Assembly (NCBI GenBank): GCA_040905425.1 | Contig: JBBDRO010000062.1 | Coordinates: 13,613 to 28,957 of the forward strand | Source: Gemmatimonadota bacterium | Lineage (GTDB): Bacteria; Gemmatimonadota; Gemmatimonadetes; Longimicrobiales; RSA9 | Direction of reading: 5' to 3' | Length of the DNA: 15,345 bases | Shown here: piece after piece, positions 77 to 15,191 of the stretch | How the letters are laid out: every line of letters starts with the position of its first letter | Numbering within the stretch: position 1 is the first letter of the stretch | Position numbers and translations under genes: made by a program | Notes under the pieces: generated by a model | Told to the model about the DNA's origin: nothing | Database searches by the model: none | The model's input: only the letters and a program-made list of their open reading frames with translations

Positions 77-111
77 AAAAAGCGGGGCCCCCGGATTCCT
101 CCGGAGGCCCC
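77..111 (-). terminator. Rho-independent terminator closing the minus-strand envelope cluster
   Basis: Minus strand reads GGGGCCTCCGGA-GGAA-TCCGGGGGCCCC-GC-TTTTT: 12-bp stem (one G:U pair), GNRA tetraloop and U-tract, 26 nt past the stop codon at 138. Confidence 0.88.
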
Positions 112-137: not shown

Positions 138-1406
138 TCAGACGCCGCCGCCACCCCCGCCCGTCTTGGGCTTGGGCTTGGCCTTGCGGCCGGTGCTGGA
201 AGTGCCGCTGCCCGCGGACGCGGAGCCGGAGCCCACGCTGCTGGCCGGGCGGCTCACGGAGGAACTCCCTGCGCTGCTGCTGCCGCGGTCGGCGGTGTAC
301 CCCTGACCCTTCACGGCGCGGATGCGGCGAGGACCCTGGTAGACCGACCCGTCGGCATTGTCTCCCGGCCGCTCGATGATGATGATGGGGCCGCCGTAGC
401 CGCCCCGGCCGTACCAGTTGCCGTAGCGGTCGTAGCCGTAGCCGCCGATGCCGTAGCCGCCGGTGCCGTAGCGGTAGGGATCGTAGCCGTAGCGCATGAA
501 CGGATCGTAGCCGTAGCGCATGTCCCAGCCGGCATAGCGGCCGTAGCGGTCCAGCCCGAAGCGATCGTAGTAGGCGTAGCCCTGCGCCACCTGCGGCAGC
601 ATCTCGGGCGTGTGGTCCTCCGTGCTGAGCTCGAAGACGTCGGGGTTGTCCAGCGCCACCATGACGTCCAGCACGTCCTCGTTCACGCCGGCGTCGGCTA
701 GCCGGACGAGCGTGCGGGCGTCCAGGTCGAACGCCGTCTTACCCTCCACCAGCAGGCCCTGCACCACCTCCGGCATGACGAAGCGGACGGCCTCCTCCAC
801 CTCGCGCACGCCGAGTGGAGCCGAGGCCACGGCGCGGGCCGTCTCGATGGCCAGCATGCGATTCTCCGTGCGCGGCAGCACCTCCGCCGGCGCCCAGGAG
901 GGCGCGCTCACCAGGCGATAGCGCCGCGCGCGCACGGGCACGTGATCCGCACCCGCGTCCACGGCCTGCACCTCGAGCCACTCGGTGGCCGAGGTGAGCG
1001 CCATGACGCCGCTGGTGGTGCGGATCTGCCCGGCTTCACAGGTGGACTGGCTGCTCAGGTAGAGGCGGTGGCCGTCCCCCGACCAGGCCACACTCTCCCA
1101 GCCCTCGCAACCGCCCTCGGCCACGGCGGTCAGCTCGCCATCGGCGCGCAGCTCCCGCTCGGCGCGGACCTCACCGCCGGCCAGGGTGGCCACCACGATG
1201 CCCTCGCCGTCCGTGTTCTCGCGCACGCACAGGATGGGCGTGGCCTCACCGAAGCCGGCGCCCGGCTCCACGGCAATGGCCTCCCAGCAGCCCAGCCAGG
1301 GGAGGAAGGTGCCATCGTCCGCCTGCGCCTGCGCCTCACCGGGCAGCAGCGCCAGCGAGAGGGCGGCCGCGGCGGCGATCAGGGAAGTACTCCTGGCGGT
1401 TGTCAT
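138..1406 (-). CDS. Secreted hypothetical protein (422 aa) with a Tyr/Gly-rich low-complexity region and a Ser/Gly/Lys C-terminal tail
   Basis: ATG at 1406 preceded by GAGGAGG, which overlaps the upstream stop at 1417-1419. Signal peptide MTTARSTSLIAAAAALSLALLPGEAQA. Beta-rich N-terminal domain with Cys residues, helical FDLDARTLVRLADAGVNEDVLDVM segment, then YG repeats. Confidence 0.82.
   Translation of the reverse strand: MTTARSTSLIAAAAALSLALLPGEAQAQADDGTFLPWLGCWEAIAVEPGAGFGEATPILCVRENTDGEGIVVATLAGGEVRAERELRADGELTAVAEGGCEGWESVAWSGDGHRLYLSSQSTCEAGQIRTTSGVMALTSATEWLEVQAVDAGADHVPVRARRYRLVSAPSWAPAEVLPRTENRMLAIETARAVASAPLGVREVEEAVRFVMPEVVQGLLVEGKTAFDLDARTLVRLADAGVNEDVLDVMVALDNPDVFELSTEDHTPEMLPQVAQGYAYYDRFGLDRYGRYAGWDMRYGYDPFMRYGYDPYRYGTGGYGIGGYGYDRYGNWYGRGGYGGPIIIIERPGDNADGSVYQGPRRIRAVKGQGYTADRGSSSAGSSSVSRPASSVGSGSASAGSGTSSTGRKAKPKPKTGGGGGGV
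478..522. repeat. 21-nt direct repeat with 24-nt period (MRYGYDP x2) within the YG-rich region
   Basis: ggatcgtagccgtagcgcatg at 478-498 and 502-522. Confidence 0.8.
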
Positions 1407-1416
1407 GTCTGCCTCC

Positions 1417-2214
1417 TCAGAAGCGCAGCGAGACGCCGACCGTAGTCTGCAGTCCCGCGAGATCAATGGCTTCGTAACCGTAATAATCGGGCCCCGGCGT
1501 GGCTGACGCAAAGGCGTAGCGCGCGTCCGCGTTCAGCACCACCTTCGGCATGATGGCCACGTCCAGGCCACCCGCCACGTACGCCGTGGGCGTCCAGCCC
1601 TCGGAACCCAGGAATCCGGCGATGATATCGCAGTACTGCTCGCCGTCGATGACCTCGCAGCTCTGGAAGTCCACGAATTCACCCGACTGCTGGAGCGAGT
1701 AGCGCGTCCAGCCGGCGCCCACCCCCAGGTACGGCAGATAGCGTTCCGGGACCCAGGCCAGGCGCCCGATCTGCCGACCCCGATCCCTGAAGTAGTACTT
1801 GAGACCAGCGGTCACCGGTGTGCGGCTGTACTCGGTGGTCTGCGCGATGGGCAGGCCGTCCTCCCCTTCCCAGTCCTCGAGTTCGGAATCGCGCTTTACG
1901 CTCGTGTACCCCACGCTCGCCGCGAAGTCGAGGCGGTCACTCAGGGTGACGGTCAGGTCCGCGCTCATGGCCGGGCTGTGGAAGTCGCCGCGATCCAGCG
2001 TGTGCTCGGTGGTGAGCAGCTCGAAGACGTCCCCGCCGGCCGCCGCGAACGCGAAGCCGCCCCGTATGCCGATGGATCCGGCCGGGGAGTCGAAGAGGTA
2101 ACCGTCGCTTGATTGAGCACTCAGGGGAACCGCCGGAGCCAGGAGGAGCACCACGAAAAGCGGCGCCAGGCCACGGCGGAGTGACCCGGTCGGCGGAGAT
2201 GGATGGGGCGTCAT
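1417..2214 (-). CDS. Outer-membrane beta-barrel protein (small OmpA/OmpW-like membrane barrel)
   Basis: GGAGG RBS at 2221-2225; signal peptide ending LSAQ; amphipathic strands (PYLGVGAGW, YVAGGLDVAI, VLNADARY); C-terminal beta-signal TVGVSLRF ending in Phe. Confidence 0.85.
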   Translation of the reverse strand: MTPHPSPPTGSLRRGLAPLFVVLLLAPAVPLSAQSSDGYLFDSPAGSIGIRGGFAFAAAGGDVFELLTTEHTLDRGDFHSPAMSADLTVTLSDRLDFAASVGYTSVKRDSELEDWEGEDGLPIAQTTEYSRTPVTAGLKYYFRDRGRQIGRLAWVPERYLPYLGVGAGWTRYSLQQSGEFVDFQSCEVIDGEQYCDIIAGFLGSEGWTPTAYVAGGLDVAIMPKVVLNADARYAFASATPGPDYYGYEAIDLAGLQTTVGVSLRF

Positions 2215-2325
2215 GTGTGGCCTCCCGGCTGGAATACGTCAGCGATCATTCGGGCGGGTGGCAGGGAGGGCCCGTCCACCCATGATAGTACCCGGCCCGC
2301 GGAATGTTCCCCTCCGGATGCACGC

Positions 2326-2355
2326 GATCCCCGCCACCGGAAGGTGACGGGGATC
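2326..2355 (-). other. Intergenic stem-loop without a U-tract (possible attenuator or mRNA stabiliser)
   Basis: Minus strand GATCCCCGTCACC-TTCC-GGTGGCGGGGATC: 13-bp stem with one G:U pair, 27 nt after the stop at 2383. Confidence 0.55.
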
Positions 2356-2382
2356 TGAGCACGGATCCGTTGTGACGGACGA

Positions 2383-2976
2383 TCAGTGATTGATCCGGAC
2401 CCGCGTCTGGTTGCGTGCGGCCGCGCCCACGTCGATGGGCGGGATGCGCCCACGGGCGCGGAGACGGGCGTTGGTGTTGGCCCGCAGCTCCGCCAGCCCC
2501 TCGGGCCCGCGGCGGGCCGCGGCCCGCACCTGCGCCAGCGCCTGCTCGGAGCCGGCGCCGAGCTGCACCAGGGAGGCCAGCACGGCGGTGGCCACCACGC
2601 GACCCTCGCGCGGGGTGTCCGAGTGGATGCGCAGCAATACCTCCTGGCTCACGCCGGCCTGCAGGGCGTCCGCGGCCACGGCCAGCTCACCGGCGGTGAC
2701 CAGCGCGGCGTCGCTCGAGCGGGCCATGACGCTGCGGGCGTTCAGGAGCGCCTCCAGCCGTGCCTCCACGGCCGCAGCAATGCGCTCCTCGGCCACGCCC
2801 TTGGCGCGGCCCTCGTTGATCTTGCTCTCCAGCAGCGCGGTGGGGATCTGCGCCTGGGCGGCGGCCCGCACGCTGGCTTCTATGCGCGCCGCGGCGTTGC
2901 CCTGCTGGGCCGCCAGGGCGGCCGGCATGAGCGCCAGCGCGGCGCCGAGAATCATCGTTCGATACGTCAGGGTCAT
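2383..2976 (-). CDS. Secreted Ala-rich alpha-helical hypothetical protein (197 aa)
   Basis: ATG at 2976 preceded by GGAGGAG; signal peptide MTLTYRTMILGAALALMPAALAAQ; motif LLESKINEGRAKGV; helical composition. Confidence 0.8.
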   Translation of the reverse strand: MTLTYRTMILGAALALMPAALAAQQGNAAARIEASVRAAAQAQIPTALLESKINEGRAKGVAEERIAAAVEARLEALLNARSVMARSSDAALVTAGELAVAADALQAGVSQEVLLRIHSDTPREGRVVATAVLASLVQLGAGSEQALAQVRAAARRGPEGLAELRANTNARLRARGRIPPIDVGAAARNQTRVRINH

Positions 2977-3011
2977 GGTCTCCTCCGGGTGCGTCGTCCG
3001 TCTCATCCATA

Positions 3012-3040
3012 GGACGAGCGGGGGACGGCTCGCGTCACAT
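3012..3040 (-). promoter_or_regulatory. Putative ECF sigma-dependent promoter (-35 TGTGAC, 17-nt spacer, -10 CGTC)
   Basis: ATGTGACGCGAGCCGTCCCCCGCTCGTCC, 8 nt after the sigma stop codon. Boxes and spacing are identical to the motif at 5585-5613. Confidence 0.7.
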
Positions 3041-3048
3041 CCGCGGGC

Positions 3049-3621
3049 TCAGGCCTCCGCGTCCACCGTGTCGGCCAGGGCGTCGCGCAGCGCCTCACGC
3101 GCGCGCAGAACCCGCATCTTCATGGCGCTTACCGAGGCGCCGGTGAGCTCCGCCATCTCCTGATAGGAGCGCTCCTCCCGGTGCTTCATGAGGAACGCCT
3201 CGCGGAGCTCGTCGGTCAGGGCGTCCAGCGCGGCCTGGATGCCCTGGCCCAGCTCGCGGCGCTCCAGTTCCTCACCGGGCGCTGGACGCTCGTCCACGAG
3301 CTGCACGTCATCCAGAGGCGTGGTGCGGCGCCGGATGTTCTTCAGGTGGTCCAGGCAGAGGTTGCGCACGATGCGGAAGAGCCAGACGCGGAAACGCTCC
3401 GGGTCCCGACACTCCGCCAGGCGCGTGTAGCCGCGTACGAAGCCGTCCTGCACCAGATCCGCGGCCACGTCCGGGTCAATGCGCATGCCGCGCACGAAGC
3501 GGTAGAGCGCCTCCTGGTGGCGCCGCACCAGGGTGGAGTAGGACTCGCGGTCCCCGGCCAGCACCCGGCGCACCAGCTCCCCGTCCGCGGGCGCGGCCGC
3601 GGCGAACGCGTGCACGGACAC
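3049..3621 (-). CDS. ECF RNA polymerase sigma-70 factor (about 190 aa)
   Basis: Region 2 (DGELVRRVLAGDRESYSTLVRRHQ...AADLVQDGFVRGY...FRVWLFRIVRNLCLDHLK) and region 4 (LDALTDELREAFLMKHREERSYQEMAELTGASVSAMKMRVLRAREALR). GTG start at 3621 is inferred from the GGAG RBS adjoining the upstream TAG; the longer ORF-track start lies inside the upstream gene. Confidence 0.93.
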   Translation of the reverse strand: MSVHAFAAAAPADGELVRRVLAGDRESYSTLVRRHQEALYRFVRGMRIDPDVAADLVQDGFVRGYTRLAECRDPERFRVWLFRIVRNLCLDHLKNIRRRTTPLDDVQLVDERPAPGEELERRELGQGIQAALDALTDELREAFLMKHREERSYQEMAELTGASVSAMKMRVLRAREALRDALADTVDAEA

Positions 3622-3622
3622 G

Positions 3623-4813
3623 CTACTCCACCACCAGCACGGCCACGTGGCCGCCGAAGCCGTCATCCTGACGCCCCGGCACCCCGTCGGGCACGTACCA
3701 GGTGCCGTCCTCCGTGACGAAGGCGTAGTAGTAGACGCCGGGCTCCAGCCGCACGGGCAGCACCCAGCGACCGTCCTCCGCCCGCATGGCCTGGGGCTCC
3801 CAGTCATTGAAGTCACCGGCCACGAGCGGGGCGCCCCGGGCGTCATCCCGGTCCAGCGCGATCACCGCCACGCCGTCCTCGTAGCTGGCCGGCACGGGCG
3901 CGGCGGGCGCCGGCGGGCCCTGTAGAAGCACGGACAGGCCCAGGCTCCATGAGGTGGTGCCGCTGGTCAGGTAGAGGGGATCGAAGACGGCGTGGCGCAC
4001 CGAGGCCGTGAGCGCGGCGCGCTCCACCACGTCCAGGCGTCCGCCCGCGGCCCACGCCATCTCCTCCAGGCCGTCCTCCAGCCAGCGGCCGACGCTGGCC
4101 CACGCCAACAGCGGCCCGCTCATCCCCGCCGCGGTGAGGCCCAGGTAGGGGTAGCCGCCCTCCTCGGCCGCGTAATGGCGCGCCTCGGCCGAGACGCTCA
4201 GCGCGGGCAGCGGCGAGGCGCTCACCTGCGCGTGCAGTTGGGCCACGTCCCGGTCGGTGGCGTCTCCGCCAAAGTCACTGTGATAGCGGGCCGCGCCGAC
4301 GCGCAGCTCAGCGCCCCAGCCGGTCCGATCGTAGGCCACGAGCGGCATGGCCTCGGCCTTCAGCCCCATGCCCGCGGGCACGGTGGTCTCCGTTACAGGA
4401 TCGCTGCCCGGCCGTCCGGGCAGGCCGGGTAGCGGGCTGTCCGTGGTGGTGGTGGTAACCGACCCCTGCAGGAAGAGCTCGCCCGCCAGGTCCACACCGA
4501 AGCGGAATGCTCGCTCGCCGGTCTGCAGCCGCAGGTTGCCGGTGGCCAGGCCCCAGGGGGCGTCCCCATCGTCCATGGGCAGCCCGCCGTAGATCCCCAG
4601 CCAGGTGGCTCCGTTCAGGTAGCGCAGGCCGCCGAGCGCGGTGGCGCTGGCGTCCGCGGCGGGGCTGGCGTCGAAGCGGAGCTGGCCGCCCTGGGCGTCC
4701 AGGCGCCACTCCTGCGCGCCGAGACCGGCGGGCGCCGCGAGGACGAGGGCGGCCGCGCACGCGGTCGCGAGCGCGCGGCGCGCCGAAGCGGCACGTGGCT
4801 GGAAACGCCTCAC
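3623..4813 (-). CDS. Secreted protein with a beta-barrel-like N-terminal region and a C-terminal CBM48/AMPK-beta-type glycogen-binding domain
   Basis: GTG start overlaps the upstream TGA (GTGA 4810-4813); signal peptide ending GLGAQ; many alternating amphipathic strands; Pro-rich linker PPAPAAPVP; CBM motifs VAGDFNDW, LEPGVYYYAFV, DGTW, DDGFGG. Confidence 0.82.
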   Translation of the reverse strand: MRRFQPRAASARRALATACAAALVLAAPAGLGAQEWRLDAQGGQLRFDASPAADASATALGGLRYLNGATWLGIYGGLPMDDGDAPWGLATGNLRLQTGERAFRFGVDLAGELFLQGSVTTTTTDSPLPGLPGRPGSDPVTETTVPAGMGLKAEAMPLVAYDRTGWGAELRVGAARYHSDFGGDATDRDVAQLHAQVSASPLPALSVSAEARHYAAEEGGYPYLGLTAAGMSGPLLAWASVGRWLEDGLEEMAWAAGGRLDVVERAALTASVRHAVFDPLYLTSGTTSWSLGLSVLLQGPPAPAAPVPASYEDGVAVIALDRDDARGAPLVAGDFNDWEPQAMRAEDGRWVLPVRLEPGVYYYAFVTEDGTWYVPDGVPGRQDDGFGGHVAVLVVE

Positions 4814-5532
4814 GTCTCGACACCTCGCTCGACCACGGCCACGCGGCTGTTCACGCCGCCGAAGCCGTCATCGACCTGCTCCGCCATCGGATCGGTGACC
4901 CAGGCGCCGTCCACCACGAAGGCGTACTCGTGGACGCCGGCGTCCAGGGGGACCACCACGGTCCACACGCCCGGCGCATTCTCCACGAGCTGGAGGCTGG
5001 GCTGCCAGTCGGTGAAGTCGCCGGCCAGCGCCACGCTGCCGGCTTCGGGGGCGTCCAGACGGAAGTGCACCCGCACGGGACCCGGCACCTGGCTGCCGCT
5101 CACCACCGTGCCGCCCTGCTGGACCGGGAAGGCCGCGTCGACCGTGGATGCCGGATCGCCGCCACGCGGCAGGATCAGCACCACCGCCAGCAGCGCGGCC
5201 GCCGCCATGGCGTAGCCGGGCCGTAGCGTGACCTGACGCGGTCGCCAGAGCCAGCGCACCATGGAAGCGACGTCCCCCTTGCCGTGCGCGGCGCGGGCAG
5301 CATCCTCCGCGGGCGCCTCCACCGCCTCATCCGCGGTTGCCTCCCAGGGGGTGCGCACCTCGGCGATGCGGTCCATAACGCCTGCGGTCATGTCCGGCGC
5401 CGGTTCATCCGGCAGGGTTTCGAGGGAGGTCCGGATGGCGCGCTCGTAGGCGGCCAGCGCCGTCCGCTCGGCCTCGTCGAGGTCCGCGCGCGGCAGGCTG
5501 CCGTCCAGACAGGCGTGGATTCTGTCGTTCAT
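4810..5532 (-). CDS. Putative transmembrane anti-sigma factor with a C-terminal CBM48/AMPK-type glycogen-binding domain (240 aa)
   Basis: N-terminal anti-sigma-like start RIHACLDGSL followed by a helix and APDMTAGVMDRI; one TM helix (YAMAAAALLAVVLIL); CBM motifs VHFRLDAPEAGSVALAGDFTDW, LDAGVHEYAFVVDGAWVTDP, DDGFGGVNS; same operon as the ECF sigma. Confidence 0.8.
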   Translation of the reverse strand: MNDRIHACLDGSLPRADLDEAERTALAAYERAIRTSLETLPDEPAPDMTAGVMDRIAEVRTPWEATADEAVEAPAEDAARAAHGKGDVASMVRWLWRPRQVTLRPGYAMAAAALLAVVLILPRGGDPASTVDAAFPVQQGGTVVSGSQVPGPVRVHFRLDAPEAGSVALAGDFTDWQPSLQLVENAPGVWTVVVPLDAGVHEYAFVVDGAWVTDPMAEQVDDGFGGVNSRVAVVERGVET

Positions 5533-5584
5533 GCTCGCCTTCTTCCACAGCGGGGGTGCTCCGTGCATACCCCTTCATGGATAC

Positions 5585-5613
5585 GGACGATTCAGGTGGT
5601 CCAGGCGTCACAT
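5585..5613 (-). promoter_or_regulatory. Putative ECF sigma-dependent autoregulatory promoter (-35 TGTGAC, 17-nt spacer, -10 CGTC)
   Basis: ATGTGACGCCTGGACCACCTGAATCGTCC upstream of the anti-sigma/CBM/sigma operon; matches 3012-3040. Confidence 0.72.
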
Positions 5614-5667: not shown

Positions 5668-6375
5668 TCAGGCCACGGCCGCCAGGCGGTCATTCACCAC
5701 GCGGAAGCGCTGGCGCATGTCCTCGGCCAGCGTGTCCACCCGGGCGTTCAGGTCACCCACGCCGATCTCGGTGCCGCGCGTGCGCGTGTCGATCTGCTCC
5801 GTGAGTTCCCGGAGCAATGTCATTTCATTGGTCAGCCGGTGGAGCCGGTGGTCCACGCGCTGCTCGAAGAACTCCATGCGGATGGTGAGCGTGCGGAACT
5901 GGTCATCCACGCCGATGAAGCGCTCCTCGATGGAGAGGAGGCGCGTGTCGATGGCGTCGAAGCGCTCGTCCACCGCCTGGAAGCGCGCGTCGATGGCGTC
6001 GAAGCGCTCGTCCACCGCCTGGAAGCGCGCGTCGATGGCGTCGAAACGCTCGTCCATCGCCTGGAAGCGCGCGTCGATGGCGTCGAAACGCTCGTCCACC
6101 GCCTGGAAGCGCGCGTCGATGGCGTCGAAACGCTCGTCGATGGCCCGAAAGCGCTCGCGCGTTTCTACGATGAACGCTTGGAGCGCCTCGGCCAGGAGTT
6201 CCTGGCGCGGCTCGAACCGCTCCTGGCGCTCCTCCAGCCGCTCGATGCGCTCGGCGATCCCGGCAATCTGGCCGCCCAGTTCGCCAAACTGCGCCTGGCT
6301 CAGCTCGAAATAGCGCTCCATACGGGCAAAGCCCGCGTCCATGCGAGCGAAGCCGGCGCGCGTTTCCTCATCCAT
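5668..6375 (-). CDS. Heptad-repeat coiled-coil hypothetical protein (235 aa)
   Basis: Near-continuous heptads including repeated RFDAIDA/RFQAVDE; no signal peptide or TM segment; fills the intergenic gap without overlap. Confidence 0.78.
   Translation of the reverse strand: MDEETRAGFARMDAGFARMERYFELSQAQFGELGGQIAGIAERIERLEERQERFEPRQELLAEALQAFIVETRERFRAIDERFDAIDARFQAVDERFDAIDARFQAMDERFDAIDARFQAVDERFDAIDARFQAVDERFDAIDTRLLSIEERFIGVDDQFRTLTIRMEFFEQRVDHRLHRLTNEMTLLRELTEQIDTRTRGTEIGVGDLNARVDTLAEDMRQRFRVVNDRLAAVA
5941..6150. repeat. Tandem repeat, 5 x 42 nt (14-aa double heptad)
   Basis: Units start at 5941, 5983, 6025, 6067 and 6109; consensus gcgcgcgtcgatggcgtcgaaRcgctcgtccaccgcctggaa; the last unit is diverged at its end. 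Confidence 0.93.
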
Positions 6376-6431: not shown

Positions 6432-8789
6432 TCACCCGCCGCTCCCGACCAGCGCCTGCAGGCGGCGGCGCGCGGCTTCCACGCGCGGCTGGAGCGGCGC
6501 GTCCGCCTCCTCCCACTGCTCGATGAAGCGGGCGTAGTAGTCGGCGGCGGCCTCCCGATCCCCGTCCGCTTCGGCCAGCTGGCCGAGCAGGTGGAGGATG
6601 CGAGCCAGGTCAACCATGTAGGGACCGATGATGTCCTCGGTGCGCAGGGTGCGGACCGTATCGAAGGCAGCGTAGGCGGCGCGTGCGGCCCCGGTATCAC
6701 CCTGGCGGAGCGCCAGGTCACCGCGCGCACTCAGGGCGCAGGGTGTGCAGACCCGCTCGAGCGCCGGCAGCGCCCGCTCCGCGGCCGCCAGATCCCCCGC
6801 CGCCAGCGGAATCCGCACGTCCAGGGTGGCCCGCGTGCCGGGGGTGGGCGGCGGCGCCACCGAATCGGCGCGCCAGCGTTCGAGCACCTGACGCGCCCGC
6901 GCCGGCCGCCCCGCCTGCGCCCAGGCGGTAGCCAGCAACCCGTAGGGGCGTTCGGCTGGCGGCATGGACTCGAGGGGGCGCTCCGCGAGCGCCTCATCGA
7001 TCACGGCCAGGGCCGCGGCGGTGTCCCCCGCGGCCAGGTGAACGTAGGTGGGACCCAAGCGGACGAACGCGGCCATCGCGGGAAGCGCGCTGAGATCCAT
7101 GGCGCTACCCAGCTCGTGGATCTCCGCCAGCGCGGCTGCGCCGCGGCCGCGCAGCGCGTGGAGCACCACCGCCTGCCAGCGCCCCCCGATCTCCCATTCC
7201 GCCTGCCCCGCCAGCTCCCGGTCCAGGACGTCGAGGACGCTGTCGGCCGCTTCCCATTCACGGGCCAGGGACGCCAGGATCATCCGGCCCTCCCCCAGCA
7301 TGCCACTGCCGGGAAAGGCGGCACGCCCGGAATCGATCACCGCCACCGCCTCCGCGTCCCGCCCCTGCGCCCAGAGGGCGGCGGCCACCACCATGTAGTT
7401 GGTGGTCGTGGCACCACCCGCCATGGCGCGGCGGCCAGACTCCTCGGCGCGTTCAGGCTGATCGCGTTGCCCATAGAGAATCGCAACGTTGTTCAGCGCC
7501 GTGCGATCCTCGAAGCGTTCGATGGCGCGCTCGTAGGCGGCGATGGCGCGGTCGTAATCGAACGTCACGCGCGCATGGTAGCTGCCTTCGGCCAGATAGC
7601 GCTCCCGCTCGGGCAACCGGTCGCTCAGCTCGAAGGCGCGCGTATACGCCTCATTCGAAGCCACCGGGTCCACACCCAGGTTGCCGAGCTCCACGCCGAG
7701 CTTCCGCCACGCCATGGCGAACTCGGGATCCTCCTCCACCGCCTGCTCGAAGATCCGTACCGCGCGCGAGCGGTCCTCGCCCACCGCCAGCGCGCGCACC
7801 CCCTGCGTATAGAGACGCAGCGCTTCCATGCTGCCAGTGGTGATCCGCTCCAGCGGCTCGCCGGCGCGGGCGGACTTGAGGGACTCGCCGATGCGGGCGC
7901 GAATCTTCTCGGAGAGCTCGTCCACGGCGTCGATGAGCCCGGCCGAATCGCGCGCGGTGACGCGGAAGGGGGCCAGCTCGGCGCCGTCGCTGGCGTTCAG
8001 CACGTGGGCGGTGAGCACGTAGCCGCCGCCCAGGCGCGCCACCTCGCCGGCCAGGACGGCCTGGTAGCCTTCGCGCGCCGCCAGCTCCCGCGCGGTGGCC
8101 GTGGTCAGCTTGGCTTCACCGTCCAGGCGCATGCGCGCCAGCGCATCGTTGACGCGGGCGGCATCGGCCAGGCGGACCTTCGTGGAACTCTGCAGGTCCA
8201 CCCGCAGCGCCTCCGTGACCACATCGCCCAGGTCGCTGCCGGGCGCGGGGCTCTCGAAGTCGGCCAGCAGCAGGACGGCGTCCTCGGCCAGCTCGCCGCT
8301 GCACATGAGCGTGCTGGCGGGTCCCAGGCACGCGGCGCGCATGCCCATGAAGCCGGTGCTGGCCAGCCCCAGGAGGGCAAAGGCCAGCACGCCGCCGGTG
8401 ATGGCCCGGTTCCAGGTGAACAGGCGCTGCGCGCCGGTGGCGGGCTCCGCGCGCTCCGGCGCGGCCGGCACAGCCCGGGCCGCGGACTCCCCTGCGCCGA
8501 TCTCGTCGGTGACGGACTCCAGCCCCTCCAGGCGCACTTCCTCGCGCGCGGCGGCCCGCGCCTGCAGCGGCCCGCCGCGCTGCACCAGCGCCGTGGCCAG
8601 GATGATCGGCAGGCCGATGGCGGAGAGGATGACCGCGAGCGGCGGCACCCACAGCGGCAGCCCCAACCCCTCGGTGAGCGAGAGCACTACCTCGTAGACG
8701 ATCCAGGACGCCACGAGGTAGCCCGCCGTGATCTGCCACAGCGAGCGGCGGTGCGCCTCGCGCAGCAGTTGCTCGAGATTGTGCGGCAT
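6432..8789 (-). CDS. Membrane-anchored TPR protein with a TolB-N-like domain (785 aa)
   Basis: N-terminal REAHRRSLWQITAGYLVASW..LPLW two-TM module; third TM (AITGGVLAFALLGLASTGF); VLLLADFE alpha/beta domain; TTGSMEALRLYTQG; TPR repeats (FEQAVEEDPEFAMAWRKLG, YDRAIAAYERAIE). Confidence 0.85.
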   Translation of the reverse strand: MPHNLEQLLREAHRRSLWQITAGYLVASWIVYEVVLSLTEGLGLPLWVPPLAVILSAIGLPIILATALVQRGGPLQARAAAREEVRLEGLESVTDEIGAGESAARAVPAAPERAEPATGAQRLFTWNRAITGGVLAFALLGLASTGFMGMRAACLGPASTLMCSGELAEDAVLLLADFESPAPGSDLGDVVTEALRVDLQSSTKVRLADAARVNDALARMRLDGEAKLTTATARELAAREGYQAVLAGEVARLGGGYVLTAHVLNASDGAELAPFRVTARDSAGLIDAVDELSEKIRARIGESLKSARAGEPLERITTGSMEALRLYTQGVRALAVGEDRSRAVRIFEQAVEEDPEFAMAWRKLGVELGNLGVDPVASNEAYTRAFELSDRLPERERYLAEGSYHARVTFDYDRAIAAYERAIERFEDRTALNNVAILYGQRDQPERAEESGRRAMAGGATTTNYMVVAAALWAQGRDAEAVAVIDSGRAAFPGSGMLGEGRMILASLAREWEAADSVLDVLDRELAGQAEWEIGGRWQAVVLHALRGRGAAALAEIHELGSAMDLSALPAMAAFVRLGPTYVHLAAGDTAAALAVIDEALAERPLESMPPAERPYGLLATAWAQAGRPARARQVLERWRADSVAPPPTPGTRATLDVRIPLAAGDLAAAERALPALERVCTPCALSARGDLALRQGDTGAARAAYAAFDTVRTLRTEDIIGPYMVDLARILHLLGQLAEADGDREAAADYYARFIEQWEEADAPLQPRVEAARRRLQALVGSGG

Positions 8790-8980: not shown

Positions 8981-9537
8981 CTAATGGTGCTTGATCGCAT
9001 ACTCCCGCACGTAGGCAACATCCATCGCGTCCCACTCCACGCCCAGCAGGTCGCGCTCGCCAATCCACTGGATCCACAGGCCCTCCGGCAGCTCGATCGT
9101 AGCCTCAGGCCGGCCGTCTGCGGTGAGGACCCTGTAGCGGGCCACCGTGTCACCCGGAACCACGGTCTCCCTGACCCAGACGCGGTCATCCCGGTCCACC
9201 ACGAGCCAATCGAAACTGGCCATGGAGTCGGGATACGCCACCTCCGGGGTGCCGCCGGTCCGGTTGCTGGCCACCTCGCGGTACCAGCTCTCCGCCTGCT
9301 CGCGGACGGCAGCGGTGACGGGGCGCCGCGGCAATCCGGCTGTCGGAAAGCCGAACGATGCCGCGGATCTCCTGGATGATGTGCTCCTCCGCCACCTCCG
9401 CCCCGCCGATGCTCAGCGTGGACGCGGGACTCGGGCGCCACCGGGCCAGCTCCGCCGATGGATCCCCTTCGTCGGCGCCCTCCGCACAGCCAGGCAGAAA
9501 GCTGAGCGCCGCGCACACCACGCAGCGTGCTAAGCCG
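8981..9537 (-). pseudogene. Remnant of a 6-bladed beta-propeller lipoprotein gene (5'-truncated, with an internal deletion and frameshift)
   Basis: One frame gives a lipobox-like LSFLPGC and TLSIGGAEV..IQEIRGIVRLSDSRIAAA (first blade). Near 9323-9334 it switches frame to RPVT..FDWLVVDRDDRVWVR..YRVLTADGR..IELPEGL..IGERDLLGVEWDAMDVAYVREY (last blades). No RBS-supported start codon. Confidence 0.7.
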
Positions 9538-9685
9538 CGACGCCCGGAAGCCACCGGCGGCCTCCGGGCGTCGTCGCTTACGAACGAACGCTGCACGCGC
9601 TCAGGTGCCGACGGCCGCGCCCTGCAGCTGCGCCGCCGCCCGCTCATTCTCGGCCCACACGCGCAGCAGGTTGCCGCCCCAGAGC
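9538..9685. repeat. Direct repeat copy A (148 bp): orphan 3' end of the dipeptidase gene plus downstream hairpin
   Basis: Ungapped match to 11064-11211, 136/148 identical by manual count; minus strand encodes LWGGNLLRVWAENERAAAQLQGAAVGT*. Confidence 0.93.
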
Positions 9686-9687
9686 AG

Positions 9688-9879
9688 CTACCGCTCGTGC
9701 CGGATATACCGCCAGTACATAAACCCGGCGAACAGGAGTGCCGAAAGCGCTGCGGTATGAATCCGCGGTTCCTCGCCCAAAAGCCAGACCCCCAACAGAT
9801 TGAAGATCAGAAGCGCCACGAATGCAAACGCGGTCTTCGGTAGTGGAGCGAGACCAGCCAACCTGTCGCGAATGTTCAT
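9688..9879 (-). CDS. Small two-TM membrane protein (63 aa), candidate immunity protein
   Basis: ATGA overlap with the upstream stop (9876-9879); hydrophobic helices TAFAFVALLIFNLLGVWLLG and ALSALLFAGFMYW; basic termini. Confidence 0.68.
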   Translation of the reverse strand: MNIRDRLAGLAPLPKTAFAFVALLIFNLLGVWLLGEEPRIHTAALSALLFAGFMYWRYIRHER

Positions 9880-10823
9880 GACGCTATAATTTCAAGCAGT
9901 TGGTCGACAAATTCAGTTGCCGAGTAACCCAACGCCCCGGCCAAGACTCCCTGCGGCACAGCCGCACGGATCGCCCAAGCAACCAAGCCGCCGCCTACGG
10001 CTCCTACAATGTCTTTCTTCGCTATCCGCCAATGATCCCAGCCCGCACTTTGGACAGCCATTGATGATGAAGCGAACGTCGGTGCGACGTCCCACGAACC
10101 GCCATTGTGAGCCACCAGCGTGATCGAATGTGTGGAATTGGGTGGCCAAATTGAATATCCCACACGTATTGTGGGGAATGGATCGGGACAAAGGTCGTCC
10201 CACACGATTGGCCCTTCCGAATCGAGGCACTCGTCGACAAAACTTTGCCACTCGTCCGCGCTTTCCTCCCACTCGTACGCCGAACTAACAGCGACGGACG
10301 ATATTGAGAGGACCAGTTCAGCTTCTGCGGTGATAAGGGTTGCGGAGGCTGCCGACTCGATCAATGCGATTGCAGATTCGAGTTGAGCTGCCGTCGTTGA
10401 ATTGTCCGCAGCCGCGACGATATCGTCGATATAATCCAGGGCTGCCTGAGAGGGCGGATCCTCGTCCATAAGCGCCACTGACGATTCCATGCCGGCGTGG
10501 GCACGATTCGCAATCGCCTGAAGGCAGGTCCTGATATCTCTCACATTTTCCAGGAACTCCCGGCAAATCTGCTCTACCATGAGACGGGAGTTAGCCCGAT
10601 TGAACGTGCCAGCTTTCAGGCTTGCCCTGGTTCTTGCGGTCAGGGCCTGCATGCCCTCGTTATGCCGGGCACCCACCCAATCGTGCGGGTTTCCGCGCGT
10701 CGGCTTTTGGTCGATGCCCTCCTGAACGACGAATGCCTCATCGACCGGTCCTGCCCCCGAGGTATCGCAACCGATAGAGAGTATGCATAAGAACCCGACG
10801 ACCAACGCATACGTTCGCCTCAT
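9876..10823 (-). CDS. Hypothetical lipoprotein (315 aa) with a C-terminal glycine-zipper-like hydrophobic segment
   Basis: GAGG upstream of the ATG; lipoprotein signal MRRTYALVVGFLCILSIG-C; NPHDWVGARHNEGM motif; helical core ending SVAVSSAYEW; C-terminus WRIAKKDIVGAVGGGLVAWAIRAAVPQGVLAGALGYS. Confidence 0.8.
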   Translation of the reverse strand: MRRTYALVVGFLCILSIGCDTSGAGPVDEAFVVQEGIDQKPTRGNPHDWVGARHNEGMQALTARTRASLKAGTFNRANSRLMVEQICREFLENVRDIRTCLQAIANRAHAGMESSVALMDEDPPSQAALDYIDDIVAAADNSTTAAQLESAIALIESAASATLITAEAELVLSISSVAVSSAYEWEESADEWQSFVDECLDSEGPIVWDDLCPDPFPTIRVGYSIWPPNSTHSITLVAHNGGSWDVAPTFASSSMAVQSAGWDHWRIAKKDIVGAVGGGLVAWAIRAAVPQGVLAGALGYSATEFVDQLLEIIAS

Positions 10824-11059
10824 GGTCCCGCCTCATCATAGTTATGGAGACGGAGTGATCATCGGCAGGCAGGAAAACCGAGTTTCAATCAGTCAGACGA
10901 ATCTTGCGGGAAAGAATTTTCCCCGATTCGTCATGAGTAAACGTACCACCATGGCTGGCTGCGCGTAAAGGTGCAGGTGCAGGACTTGTGGCGATATGGC
11001 GCCAACGCAAAACGCTATCGTCAGGAGGGCACGAAGGGTACTACAGTGCAACGCGCCAG

Positions 11060-11103
11060 GCGACGACGCCCGGAAGCCACCGGCGGCCTCCGGGCGTCGT
11101 CGC
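11060..11103 (-). terminator. Strong stem-loop downstream of the dipeptidase gene (probable terminator, no clear U-tract)
   Basis: Perfect 15-bp inverted repeat gcgacgacgcccgga (11060-11074) / tccgggcgtcgtcgc (11089-11103), extendable to 20 bp with G:U pairs on the minus-strand RNA; 23 nt after the stop at 11127. Confidence 0.7.
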
Positions 11104-11211
11104 TTACGAACGAACGCTGCCCGGCCTCAGTTGCCGGCTGCCGCGCCCTGCAGCTCCGCCGCCACACGCTCGTTTGCGGCCCACACGCGCAGCAGGTTGC
11201 CGCCCCAGAGC
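11064..11211. repeat. Direct repeat copy B (148 bp): functional 3' end of the dipeptidase gene plus hairpin
   Basis: Matches 9538-9685 at an offset of 1526 nt. Confidence 0.93.
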
Positions 11212-12380
11212 TTGGCGATCTCCTCCTCCGTGTAGCCGCGGCGCACCAGCTCCAGCGTCACGTTCAGGCTCTCCGCGGCGCTGTCCCAGCCGGTCACGCC
11301 GCCGCCGCCGTCGAAGTCCGAGCTGATGCCCACGTGGTCGATGCCGATGAGCTCCACCGCGTGGTCGATGTGGTCCACGAAGTCGGCCACCGTGGCGCCC
11401 GGGAACCGCTGGCGGATCTCCTCCATGCGCGCGTCGTACTCGGCGCGGCGCTCCTCGGTGAGGGCGTCCATGCCGCCCCGGCCCCCCGTCACGCCGAACT
11501 CCTCGCGCAGCGCCTGGATGGCCTGGCCGCGCTCGGGCGGCTGGATCTTGACGTAGCCGTCGAAGGCCACGGTCTGCATGACGCCGCCGTTCTCACGGAG
11601 CGCCTGCAGCGTCTCGTCATCCATGTTGCGCGGGTGATCCGCCACGGCGCGCGTGCTGGAGTGGGAGGCTATGACCGGCGCCTGCGAGACGCGCATGGCA
11701 TGCAGCGCGGCGTTCTTGGAGATGTGGGAGACGTCCACCATGATGCCCAGGCGGTTCATCTCGGCCACCACCTGTTCACCGAACGCCGACAGGCCGCCGT
11801 GCTCCTCCTCGGCGTCGTCCCCGCGCGGCGTGGCGGAATCCGCAATGTCATTGTGGCCGCCGTGGGCCAGCGTGATGTAGCGGCCGCCGCGGGCGTGGAA
11901 GTCGGCCAGGTTGGCCAGGTCATTGCCGATCGGGTAGCCGTTCTCGATGCCGATGGCCACCACCAGCTTGCCCGCGGCATGGATGCGCTCCACGTCGGCG
12001 GCGGTGTAGGCAATCTCCACCTGGTCGGGGCACTGCACCTCGGCCATGCGGTGGATGCCGTCGAACTTCTGGATGGCCTGCTCGTGAGCGCGCGCGTTGC
12101 CCTCCGGCGTGCGCTCGCCCTGGCCCACATAGACAATGAAGAAGGCCACGTCGAGCAGCCCCTCACGCATCTTGGGCACGTCCACCTGGCGGTCCACGGC
12201 CTGGCAGGCGTTGTAGTCATCGCTCCCGAAGCTGCCGGGGATGTCATCGTGCGTGTCGATGGTGAGCACGCGCTCGTGGATCTCCTGGGCGCGGGCCAGC
12301 TGCGCTTCCTCGGTGTCACGGGCGGTGCACGCGGTGGTGAGCGCGGCCAGGACGAGGAGCAGCGGGGTTCTGCGGGACAT
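11127..12380 (-). CDS. Membrane dipeptidase, peptidase family M19 (renal dipeptidase-like), predicted lipoprotein (417 aa)
   Basis: GGAGGA RBS before the ATG at 12380; lipobox LTTAC; motifs IDTHDD, QVDVPKMREG, IGIENG, YITLAH, EMNRLGIMVDVSH, PVIASHSS, RNMDDE, DHIDH, HVGISSDFDGGG, KLWGGNLLRV. Confidence 0.95.
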   Translation of the reverse strand: MSRRTPLLLVLAALTTACTARDTEEAQLARAQEIHERVLTIDTHDDIPGSFGSDDYNACQAVDRQVDVPKMREGLLDVAFFIVYVGQGERTPEGNARAHEQAIQKFDGIHRMAEVQCPDQVEIAYTAADVERIHAAGKLVVAIGIENGYPIGNDLANLADFHARGGRYITLAHGGHNDIADSATPRGDDAEEEHGGLSAFGEQVVAEMNRLGIMVDVSHISKNAALHAMRVSQAPVIASHSSTRAVADHPRNMDDETLQALRENGGVMQTVAFDGYVKIQPPERGQAIQALREEFGVTGGRGGMDALTEERRAEYDARMEEIRQRFPGATVADFVDHIDHAVELIGIDHVGISSDFDGGGGVTGWDSAAESLNVTLELVRRGYTEEEIAKLWGGNLLRVWAANERVAAELQGAAAGN

Positions 12381-13349: not shown

Positions 13350-15191
13350 ATGCAACGGCCCGTTGGTTTCCTGATCGCGGCGCTCCTGCTGGCCGCCGGC
13401 TGTTCTCCCGGCAACCCGGCGGTGCAGCCGCCCGCGCCCACCCCCACGCCCATTCCCACGCCCACGGCCGCCCAGGCCGAGGTCTTCGTGCGGGACACCG
13501 CCGAAGCCATGCTCTACGATCTGGGCGTGCGGGCCGGCCGGGCCGCCTGGGTGCAGGCCAACTTCATCACGCACGACACGGAGATCCTGGCCGCCGAGGC
13601 CAATGAGCGCTACCTGGCGGCCCAGTCGGCGCTGGCCGGCCGCGCCGCCGTCTACGACGGGCTTGACCTGCCTTACGACGTGGCGCGCAAGCTGGGCATC
13701 CTGAAGACCGCCATCACGCTGCCGGCCCCCCGCGATCCGGCGCGCACCACGGAGCTAAGCCGCCTGGCGGCCAGCCTGGAGAGCACGTACGGCAGCGGCC
13801 AGTACTGCCCGCCGGGCGGTGGCCCGTGCCTGGCGCTCGGGGAGCTGGAGAACATCCTGGCCACCTCCCGTGAGGAGCCGGAGTTGCGCGAGGCCTGGTC
13901 CGGCTGGCGCACCGTCTCCCCGCCCATGCGCGCCGATTTCAGCCGCTTTGTGGAGCTGGCCAACCAGGGCGCCACGCAGCTGGGCTACGCGGACGTGGGC
14001 GCGCTCTGGCGCTCGGGCTACGACATGGACCCCGACGCCTTCGCCGCCGAGCTGGACCGGCTCTGGGAGCAGGTGCGGCCGCTCTACGAGCGCCTCCACT
14101 GCTACGTGGGCCAGAAGCTGGGCGAGCACTACGGCTTCGACGTGGCCGGCCCGGGCCGCCCCCTGCCCGCCCACCTGCTGGGCAACATGTGGGGCCAGCA
14201 GTGGGGCAACATCTACGACCTGGTGGCGCCGGCCGACGCCGACCCCGGCTACGACCTCACCGCCCGCCTGCGCGCCGCGAACGCCGACGCCGTGGGAATG
14301 GTGCGCACCGGCGAGCGCTTCTTCTCGTCGATCGGCCTGGAGCCGCTGCCGGAGACCTTCTGGGAGCGCTCTCTGTTCGTGAAGCCGGCCGACCGGGAGG
14401 TGGTCTGCCACGCCAGCGCCTGGAACCTGGACGGCGTGGATGACCTGCGCATCAAGATGTGCATCGAGGTGGACGCCGAGGACTTCCAGACCATCCACCA
14501 CGAGCTGGGCCACAACTACTACCAGCGCGCCTACAACCACCTGAGCTACCTCTATCAGAACAGCGCCAATGACGGCTTCCACGAGGCGCTGGGGGACGCC
14601 GTGGCCCTCTCCGTCACCCCTGCCTACCTGAAGACCATCGGGCTGATCGAGGAGGAGCCGCCCGCGGAGGCGGACATAGGCCTGCTGCTGCGCGACGCGC
14701 TGGACAAGGTGGCGTTCCTGCCCTTCGGCCTGCTGGTGGACCAGTGGCGCTGGCGGGTCTTCTCGGGTGAGATTGCCCCCCCCGGCTACAACCAGGGCTG
14801 GTGGGACCTGCGCCTGCGCTACCAGGGGCTGGTACCGCCGGTGGCGCGCACGGAGGCGCACTTCGACCCGGGCGCCAAGTACCACGTGCCGGCCAACGTG
14901 CCGTACACGCGCTACTTCCTGGCGCACATCCTCCAGTTCCAGTTCCACCGCTCGCTGTGCCAGGCCGCCGGCTACCAGGGCCCGCTGCACCGCTGCTCGA
15001 TCTACGGCAACGAGGAGGCGGGCGCGCGCCTGGCGGCCATGATGGAGCTGGGCGCCAGCCGCCCGTGGCCGGAAGCCCTGCAGGCGCTCACCGGCAGCAG
15101 GGAGATGGACGCCACGGCCATCCAGGACTATTTCGCGCCGCTAGCCGCCTGGCTGGACGAGCAGAACCGCGGCCGGAGCTGCGGCTGGTGA
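13350..15191 (+). CDS. M2 family metallopeptidase (ACE-like peptidyl-dipeptidase A), predicted lipoprotein (613 aa)
   Basis: GGAGG RBS before the ATG at 13350; lipobox LAAGC and a PT linker; motifs [32 protein letters not shown] (HEXXH), [36 protein letters not shown]. Confidence 0.96.

Follow-up and report, generated by a model that had tools for sequence, protein, structure and literature searches.

Introduction

What does an extracytoplasmic function (ECF) sigma factor respond to when the genes packed against it encode two proteins with carbohydrate-binding modules of family 48 (CBM48), one resembling an anti-sigma factor and the other an outer-membrane barrel? The question is raised by a stretch of DNA from a Gemmatimonadota bacterium (Longimicrobiales; RSA9), positions 13,613 to 28,957 of contig JBBDRO010000062.1 (assembly GCA_040905425.1). 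This whole stretch, referred to here as the window, is 15,345 nucleotides long with a GC content of about 0.71, and six of its open reading frames lie on the minus strand between 5532 and 138. In that order they are called A, B, sigma, D, E and F; named homologues belong to Longimicrobiales/Gemmatimonadota. An earlier, sequence-only reading took all six for one alpha-glucan-sensing system, in which the CBM48 domains of A and B meet in the periplasm to control sigma and the remaining exported proteins are its envelope targets. The analysis described below points to a different arrangement: likely a real, widespread and uncharacterised variant of capped anti-sigma signalling, with A, B, sigma and D as its four genes and a DUF4382 gene, unlinked to them, as target.

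A conserved module of four genes

A (4810..5532) encodes an anti-sigma-like protein of 240 amino acids, B (3623..4813) a protein of 396 amino acids with a signal peptide, a predicted barrel and a CBM48, sigma (3049..3621) an ECF sigma factor of 190 amino acids, and D (2383..2976) a secreted protein of 197 amino acids, all-helical in its model and without a Pfam family. The reading frames of A and B share 4 nt, and 1 nt separates the stop codon of B from the GTG start of sigma. The conservation of this arrangement was followed with profile searches. B has a match in 42 of 61 genomes, in some through the CBM only, and the surroundings of the higher-scoring matches provided 40 loci, taken from 33 of 41 matching relatives; the search of representatives used residues 92–396 of B as query and not the barrel alone, and a contig search with B alone gave seven loci, two of them useful. 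A, B, sigma and D are all present in 30 of the 40 loci picked through B. Counted singly, D is found in 39, A in 37 and sigma in 32, with several of the gaps at contig ends, and the gene orders seen are A-B-sigma-D, sigma-A-B-D and sigma-A-D-B. Six loci keep A, B and D linked where sigma has moved off; an orthologue of sigma with 51–54% identity lies elsewhere in all four genomes with sigma-lacking loci that were tested, while a fifth genome tested, which is without B, has no sigma orthologue at E 1e-25. The combination singled out by the earlier reading, a sigma gene with a CBM anti-sigma-like gene and a barrel-CBM gene, is thus conserved across relatives.

Searching with D gave the same picture from the other side. 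D homologues occur in 71 of the 151 Gemmatimonadota genomes searched, and in all 20 D-picked loci (20 of about 105 matches) a CBM gene and an ECF sigma gene stand beside D, 19 of them co-oriented. D, and not B, is the more constant partner of A. E and F behave otherwise: neither has a match in any of the 40 module loci, and all 11 E-F loci fetched from relatives have E immediately ahead of F, with module genes and the promoter motif described below both absent. A six-gene system was rejected on these grounds. What stands of that claim is that six co-oriented genes are present and that A, B and sigma are tightly packed; the system itself comprises four genes, and E and F lose their assignment as envelope targets. 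In addition, a 13-bp hairpin without a U-tract follows D (2326..2355, minus strand; z −3.75, with 0 of 200 shuffles as stable), and the module transcript likely ends there. Because E and F are absent from module loci and conserved as a pair of their own, and because the hairpin follows D, they are treated here as separate.

The promoter motif and its likely targets

The exact motif GTGAC-N17-CGTC occurs at two sites in the window, both on the minus strand and both predicted ECF promoters: P1 (5586..5613), 5' of A, and P2 (3013..3040), 5' of D. The 40 relative loci carry the motif in the same places, ahead of the first gene in 29 and at the D position in 33, with both copies in 27 and neither in five. 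The module is likely autoregulated by its ECF sigma, and it is from this autoregulation that we infer the motif to be read by that sigma. The promoter copy ahead of D bears on two earlier claims. D had been regarded as a target; it does have its own copy of the motif, but with its presence in nearly every locus it is a core component and not a target only. A single terminator had been assumed for all six genes; a terminator-like hairpin does close the E-F end (84..111, minus strand), but D has its own promoter motif and is followed by a hairpin. In the four genomes with a displaced, cognate-like sigma gene (L183–L186), that gene adjoins citrate synthase and has no motif upstream.

A motif matrix trained on 59 sites from relatives was used to scan the organism's own genome. 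The top site lies on another contig, 90 bases 5' of a gene for a DUF4382 lipoprotein (L068:1046-1951; G000:C71:23545-24450), a likely conserved target of the module, and the two sites of the window rank second and fifth genome-wide. At 22 bits or more there are four sites against none in a simulated genome, while lower scores do not rise above background. A DUF4382 gene has the motif ahead of it in 24 of 30 loci, compared with 3 of 119 control windows; a match exists in 34 genomes, and the best one was taken from each of 30, among them the own genome. Of the six loci without the motif, three come from genomes that lack B, match it marginally or have the motif-less gene order (G014, G048 and G009). 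No solved relative of DUF4382 was found by sequence. This comparison suggests that the unlinked DUF4382 lipoprotein, which had no place in the earlier reading, is likely the module's conserved output.

A large regulon in the own genome is a possibility that was considered; most of its 158 exact motif sites are due to chance. Across 37 genomes a strict pattern gave 75 sites against 14 for a reversed control, and the downstream genes were read for 51 of the 75, many of these sites again being chance. Pfam searches with 11 exported, motif-led candidates identified an L,D-transpeptidase, two OmpA-family lipoproteins, an IPT/TIG lipoprotein, two barrels (one Alginate_exp), DUF4382, a lamin-tail domain and a carboxypeptidase-regulatory-like domain; the remaining two matched no family. 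Inspection of the motif-led genes by eye showed no glycoside hydrolase or SusC/D gene, and the GH13 cluster of the own genome (C50) has no motif. The nameable motif-led genes are envelope proteins, not glucan-utilisation genes. Two further candidate targets may be mentioned. A helical lipoprotein gene (L069:858-1499; G000:C40) lies 108 bases 3' of a 20.7-bit motif, and its distant homologues have no motif ahead of them. IPT/TIG (plus Kelch-like) lipoproteins stand behind the motif in two genomes (L039:11482-13203 and L122:1588-3027) and may be a second conserved target.

Distribution in other phyla

The module extends beyond Gemmatimonadota. Records of Halalkalibaculum (Balneolales) and Longimonas (Rhodothermales) show sigma-A-B-D with the DUF4382 gene inside the cluster. 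A search of Balneolales matched A in 13 of 41 genomes, and all five genes are present in the 14 loci available (the 13 fetched plus Halalkalibaculum). A variant of the motif, GTAAC-N16/17-CGTC, precedes DUF4382 in all 14, sigma in nine and D in four; its 30 occurrences in these loci all share the strand of the module, whereas shuffling gave a mean of 2.8. In the ESM Atlas, B-like clusters were found in Gemmatimonadota and Balneolota, and D was matched by unnamed Gemmatimonadota clusters only, below 0.9.

Protein A and the sigma factor

A consists of a cytoplasmic helical N-terminus, one transmembrane segment (approximately residues 103–121), a linker of about 24 residues and a periplasmic AMPK1/CBM48 domain (AMPK1_CBM at E 1e-14, together with CBM_48), which bears out the description of A as a transmembrane CBM48 protein. 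The single transmembrane segment is found in 106 of 116 homologues of A and its positive-inside polarity in 104. The HxxxCxxC motif of zinc-binding anti-sigma (ZAS) domains is present in none of the 116. Given its position and architecture, A is likely the anti-sigma factor. The sigma factor itself matches Sigma70_r2 and r4_2, as well as TIGR02937 above cut-off; with regions 2 and 4.2 only, in about 190 residues, it fits the definition of an ECF sigma factor. A gene for an RseP-family protease is present in the genome, although this family is universal and not discriminating.

Protein B

The model of B (pLDDT, the predicted local distance difference test, of 94) shows a 14-stranded barrel (about 4711–3920) followed by a C-terminal CBM48 (about 3886–3629), in agreement with the earlier description; there is no plug, and strand 1 begins right at the start. 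The AMPK1_CBM match of B, at 26.1 bits, falls just below the 26.8 cut-off, and the modelled domain superimposes on the AMPK beta CBM with Z 11. In a barrel with an even number of strands both termini are on the periplasmic side. Since the strand number of B is even, its CBM48 is placed on the periplasmic side along with the N-terminus, so that the CBMs of A and B are both predicted to face the periplasm, the compartment in which they had been proposed to meet. None of the six proteins gave a Pfam match to a glycoside hydrolase, a TonB receptor or FecR, as had been noted from the start.

The sugar site of the two CBM48 domains

In the AMPK CBM, residues W100, K126, W133, L146 and T148 bind cyclodextrin, and each of their mutations, K126A included, markedly reduces glycogen binding (PMC2642990). 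The aromatic cradle is retained in the module. In A, the W100 column is Trp in 115 of 116 sequences, the W133 column Trp in 116 of 116 and the L146 column Phe in 116 of 116; in B, the corresponding figures are Trp in 106 of 106, Trp in 103 of 106 and Met or Phe in 104 of 106. The lysine is not: none of 116 sequences of A and none of 106 of B have it at the K126 column, compared with 88 of 94 domains among control CBM48s. These controls come from 21 tandem-CBM proteins found in the same search, of which three also have an alpha-amylase domain. In the window, the CBM48 of A (residues 153–235; 4828..5076, minus strand), the predicted D-binding surface, retains W176, W211 and F224 and has Ala204 at the K126-equivalent position. 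Replacement of T148 by Gly was considered as a further mark of lost sugar binding and rejected; because control CBM48s share the same DGFGG loop, only the lysine loss is diagnostic. In Balneolales, A is likewise without the lysine in 14 of 14 loci. Elsewhere in the genome (G000:C30, near 45150-46190, plus strand), a stand-alone CBM48 is fused to a PAKKA-repeat, histone-like tail.

Protein D and its predicted contact with A

The model of D is all-helical (pLDDT 91). Foldseek found no match at E 0.001 and the best VIA match, at Z 6.9, was among designed helical proteins, which does not show a new fold; RseB and MucB are not among the fold matches listed. Residues E33, G34, A36, K37, R43 and R51 are invariant in 82 D sequences. 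The first four belong to an E-G-x-A-K motif at mature residues 33–37 (about 2814–2800), which in the form EGxx[KR] is present in 58 of 60 D frames from the fetched loci.

When residues 150–240 of A were modelled together with mature D, the complex scored 0.78 and the best of three controls 0.00; of 157 solved complexes 116 attain this mark, as do 2 of 215 mismatched pairs, though with our own alignments these figures hold only roughly. The runs share at least 75% of contacts, with a pLDDT for D of at least 84. The surest contacts join W176, W211, D222 and F224 of A to residues 32–39 of D, with K37 of D touching all four. D is thus predicted to plug the CBM48 sugar cradle of A through its EGxxK motif, and its lysine may replace in trans the one lost from the CBM. 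Because D has no clear solved look-alike, the prediction is unlikely to be the memory of a like complex. On the D side, interface residues exceed the remainder of the protein in conservation (0.77 vs 0.61, p 0.001), and B is identical to A at 15 of 23 interface positions compared with 22 of 51 elsewhere.

A model for the control of sigma

These data have led us to propose a switch of the MucB/RseB type with an outer-membrane input and an envelope-protein output, an account that we hold with slightly less than even confidence. Membrane protein A would hold the ECF sigma factor inactive. Secreted D, made from its own sigma-type promoter, would cap A by plugging the CBM48 cradle and, through that promoter, provide negative feedback. 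The barrel protein B would compete for or tether D by means of its own periplasmic CBM48. Upon loss of the cap, A would be degraded and the freed sigma factor would transcribe the module together with envelope lipoproteins such as DUF4382. In this lineage the input, which B would report, would be the condition of the outer membrane or periplasm, and not free alpha-glucan. The parts of the model differ in origin: gene content, synteny, the repeated promoter motif, the lysine loss and the DUF4382 link come from sequence comparison; the barrel fold and the A-D interface are predicted by structural models; sigma sequestration, proteolysis of uncapped A, feedback by D and B as input are proposed by analogy to MucA-MucB and RseA-RseB.

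Several observations weigh against this model. The N-terminus of A resembles anti-sigma domains weakly, with zf-HC2 in 2 of 116 homologues and RsiW at E 0.84. Two of the 20 D-picked loci are sigma-A-D without B, and in a third B is a CBM remnant only, so B is not obligatory. The A-D contact is a matter of model confidence, which supports binding and does not show it, and on the A side interface residues do not stand out in conservation from the remainder of the CBM (0.77 vs 0.75, p 0.36). A different ECF sigma factor in G022 (L153:1861-4066, C32), followed by a small protein, a multi-transmembrane MscS-like gene and an outer-membrane barrel, carries the GTGAC/CGTC motif twice, and some motif-led genes may therefore belong to another sigma. 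The remaining points are all compatible with a sugar signal: the cradle tryptophans and the aromatic or Met at the L146 position are retained in both A and B, B keeps its lysine in 14 of 14 Balneolales loci, conserved W54, W205, W211 and several Arg lie on the lumen face of B as judged from strand alternation and not coordinates, and the top fold match of B is the cyclodextrin channel CymA (Z 19.2, root-mean-square deviation 3.3 over 238 residues).

These sugar-related points, the resemblance of B to CymA and its lysine in Balneolales in particular, also favour the main rival, an alpha-glucan competitor acting through B. The wiring would be the same, with malto- or cyclo-oligosaccharides entering via B, being caught by its CBM and displacing D as a sugar mimic, and the predicted seat of D exactly on the sugar site of A suits such a scheme. 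We consider it somewhat unlikely: the identity of B to CymA is only 8% and OmpG, also 14-stranded, scores 17.3; both CBMs have lost the lysine in this lineage; and the nameable motif-led genes include no glucan-utilisation gene, while GH13 genes are without the motif. The lysine loss, the predicted filling of A's cradle by D and the envelope character of the motif-led genes likewise weaken the earlier proposal of alpha-glucan sensing through two CBMs. A bolder version, which we judge unlikely, has the CBM48 rewired as a signalling socket in which the lysine is lost and the invariant lysine of D serves in trans as a glucan mimic; a CymA-like, TonB-independent barrel, whose CBM48 is canonical in Balneolales, would let an oligosaccharide from outside displace the mimic and fire the ECF sigma. 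If true, it would be a new trans-envelope signalling route in at least three phyla, with an unstudied DUF4382 lipoprotein as its universal output.

A third possibility makes D, perhaps as a dimer, a bridge between the CBMs of A and B and thereby an inner-to-outer-membrane tether, which a widened periplasm or unassembled B would break, exposing A to proteases. The two CBMs share the predicted D-contact surface, the linker of A is flexible (median 24 residues among homologues), and A, B and D stay together even at the six loci left by sigma, but each D has a single EGxxK motif and sigma-A-D loci without B exist. Moreover, D with its own promoter would be in excess, and for that reason a cap suits it better than a stoichiometric bridge; the tether is decidedly improbable. 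Very improbable indeed is a direct or glucan-mediated meeting of the CBMs of A and B that controls sigma, with D, E and F downstream. In its favour, most loci have A next to B and coupled with it, the two CBMs are predicted to be periplasmic and glycogen sensing has been proposed for ECF278s1 (PMC7826278); against it, E and F have neither the motif nor, in other genomes, a link to the module, D is the steadier partner of A with a predicted place on the sugar site, and the lysine is lost from both CBMs.

Relation to known systems

The capped anti-sigma switch favoured here has its closest published relative in ECF278s1, which has been described in silico only, from Desulfovibrio and Syntrophobacter (Casas-Pastor et al. 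2021; PMC7826278). There the putative anti-sigma, encoded at +1, has one transmembrane segment and a periplasmic AMPK glycogen-recognition site, with predicted −35 GTGAC and −10 GTATA elements. The module shares the ECF sigma, the one-transmembrane, anti-sigma-like CBM protein and the −35 GTGAC. In contrast, its conserved −10 element, compared by description, is CGTC and not GTATA, which speaks against membership, and A lies two genes upstream of sigma (A-B-sigma-D), although the sigma-A order occurs in many relatives; the accessible description of ECF278s1 names no barrel-CBM, D or DUF4382 gene. The literature searched, with subscription journals largely outside its reach, held no paper joining an ECF sigma, an anti-sigma and an AMPK-type domain, and none on Gemmatimonadota ECF/anti-sigma systems; for CBM48 in such a combination it held one unrelated metagenomics paper, and for DUF4382 one on an archaeal glycoproteome.

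In its logic the module likely works like RseA-RseB/sigmaE and MucA-MucB/AlgU without being a member: a one-transmembrane anti-sigma would be capped by a co-encoded soluble periplasmic protein, just as MucB shields MucA from being cleaved before an envelope signal comes (PMC7400510). As described in that source, MucB and RseB have a beta half-barrel that binds lipid A, and no CBM is present in the anti-sigmas they cap, whereas D is all-helical, the periplasmic part of A is a folded CBM48 and the module has a barrel of its own. SigI/RsgI of Clostridium thermocellum likewise places an alternative sigma under a membrane anti-sigma, which relays outside polysaccharide by regulated intramembrane proteolysis (PMC10328401). 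It differs, in the published account, by its SigI family, autocleaving periplasmic domain, cellulosome output and lack of a barrel and capping protein, and no polysaccharide-degrading output was found here. CymA (PDB 4d5b), a cyclodextrin channel with an N-terminal plug (PMC11186346), is a 14-stranded-type barrel like B, which has no plug and ends in a CBM.

The CBMs of A and B belong to the same fold family as that of the AMPK beta subunit and keep the equivalents of W100 and W133, with L146 as an aromatic or Met, but are periplasmic and without the K126 equivalent, and the cradle of A is predicted to take a protein ligand. FecA/FecR/FecI also combines an outer-membrane barrel that has a periplasmic domain with a co-encoded anti-sigma and ECF sigma; FecA is a 22-stranded, plugged TonB receptor, and the system has a FecR domain. 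B, in contrast, is modelled with 14 strands, no plug and a C-terminal CBM and has no TonB-receptor match, and A has no FecR domain.

The E-F pair and neighbouring genes

E (1417..2214, minus strand) encodes a small outer-membrane barrel-like protein of 265 amino acids (OMP_b-brl at E 0.004), and its partner F (138..1406, minus strand) an exported protein of 422 amino acids with Tyr/Gly-rich repeats, to which no Pfam family matches at cut-off. Of 37 genomes 19 have F, among them seven of seven from a family in which B was not found (0 of 12). By their sequence conservation E and F appear as an uncharacterised pair in their own right. A GGAAC-like element, seen by eye upstream of several relative E-F loci, is perhaps another ECF promoter.

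Upstream of the module, a gene at 5668-6375 (minus strand) that is not syntenic with it encodes a 235-residue coiled-coil protein with a 42-bp (14-residue) tandem repeat in 4.8 copies of 96% match. A 315-residue, lipoprotein-like open reading frame without a Pfam family (9876-10823, minus strand) lies in a patch of low GC (0.56–0.60), between two stretches that resemble each other (near 9530-9650 and 10990-11120), and is possibly a recent insertion. The other neighbours are ordinary: a membrane-anchored TPR protein (6432-8789, minus strand), an M19 dipeptidase (11127-12380, minus strand) and an M2 (ACE-like) peptidase (13350-15191, plus strand).

Concluding remarks

If the proposed model is true, Gemmatimonadota would have in this module their first defined circuit for envelope signalling, one that Balneolota and Rhodothermota also possess. 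It would come with a promoter consensus at hand and place DUF4382 proteins in a regulatory context for the first time. The label of "glycogen-binding domain" on such anti-sigmas, and the glycogen-sensing guess for ECF278s1, may mislead, as the pocket is predicted to bind a protein.

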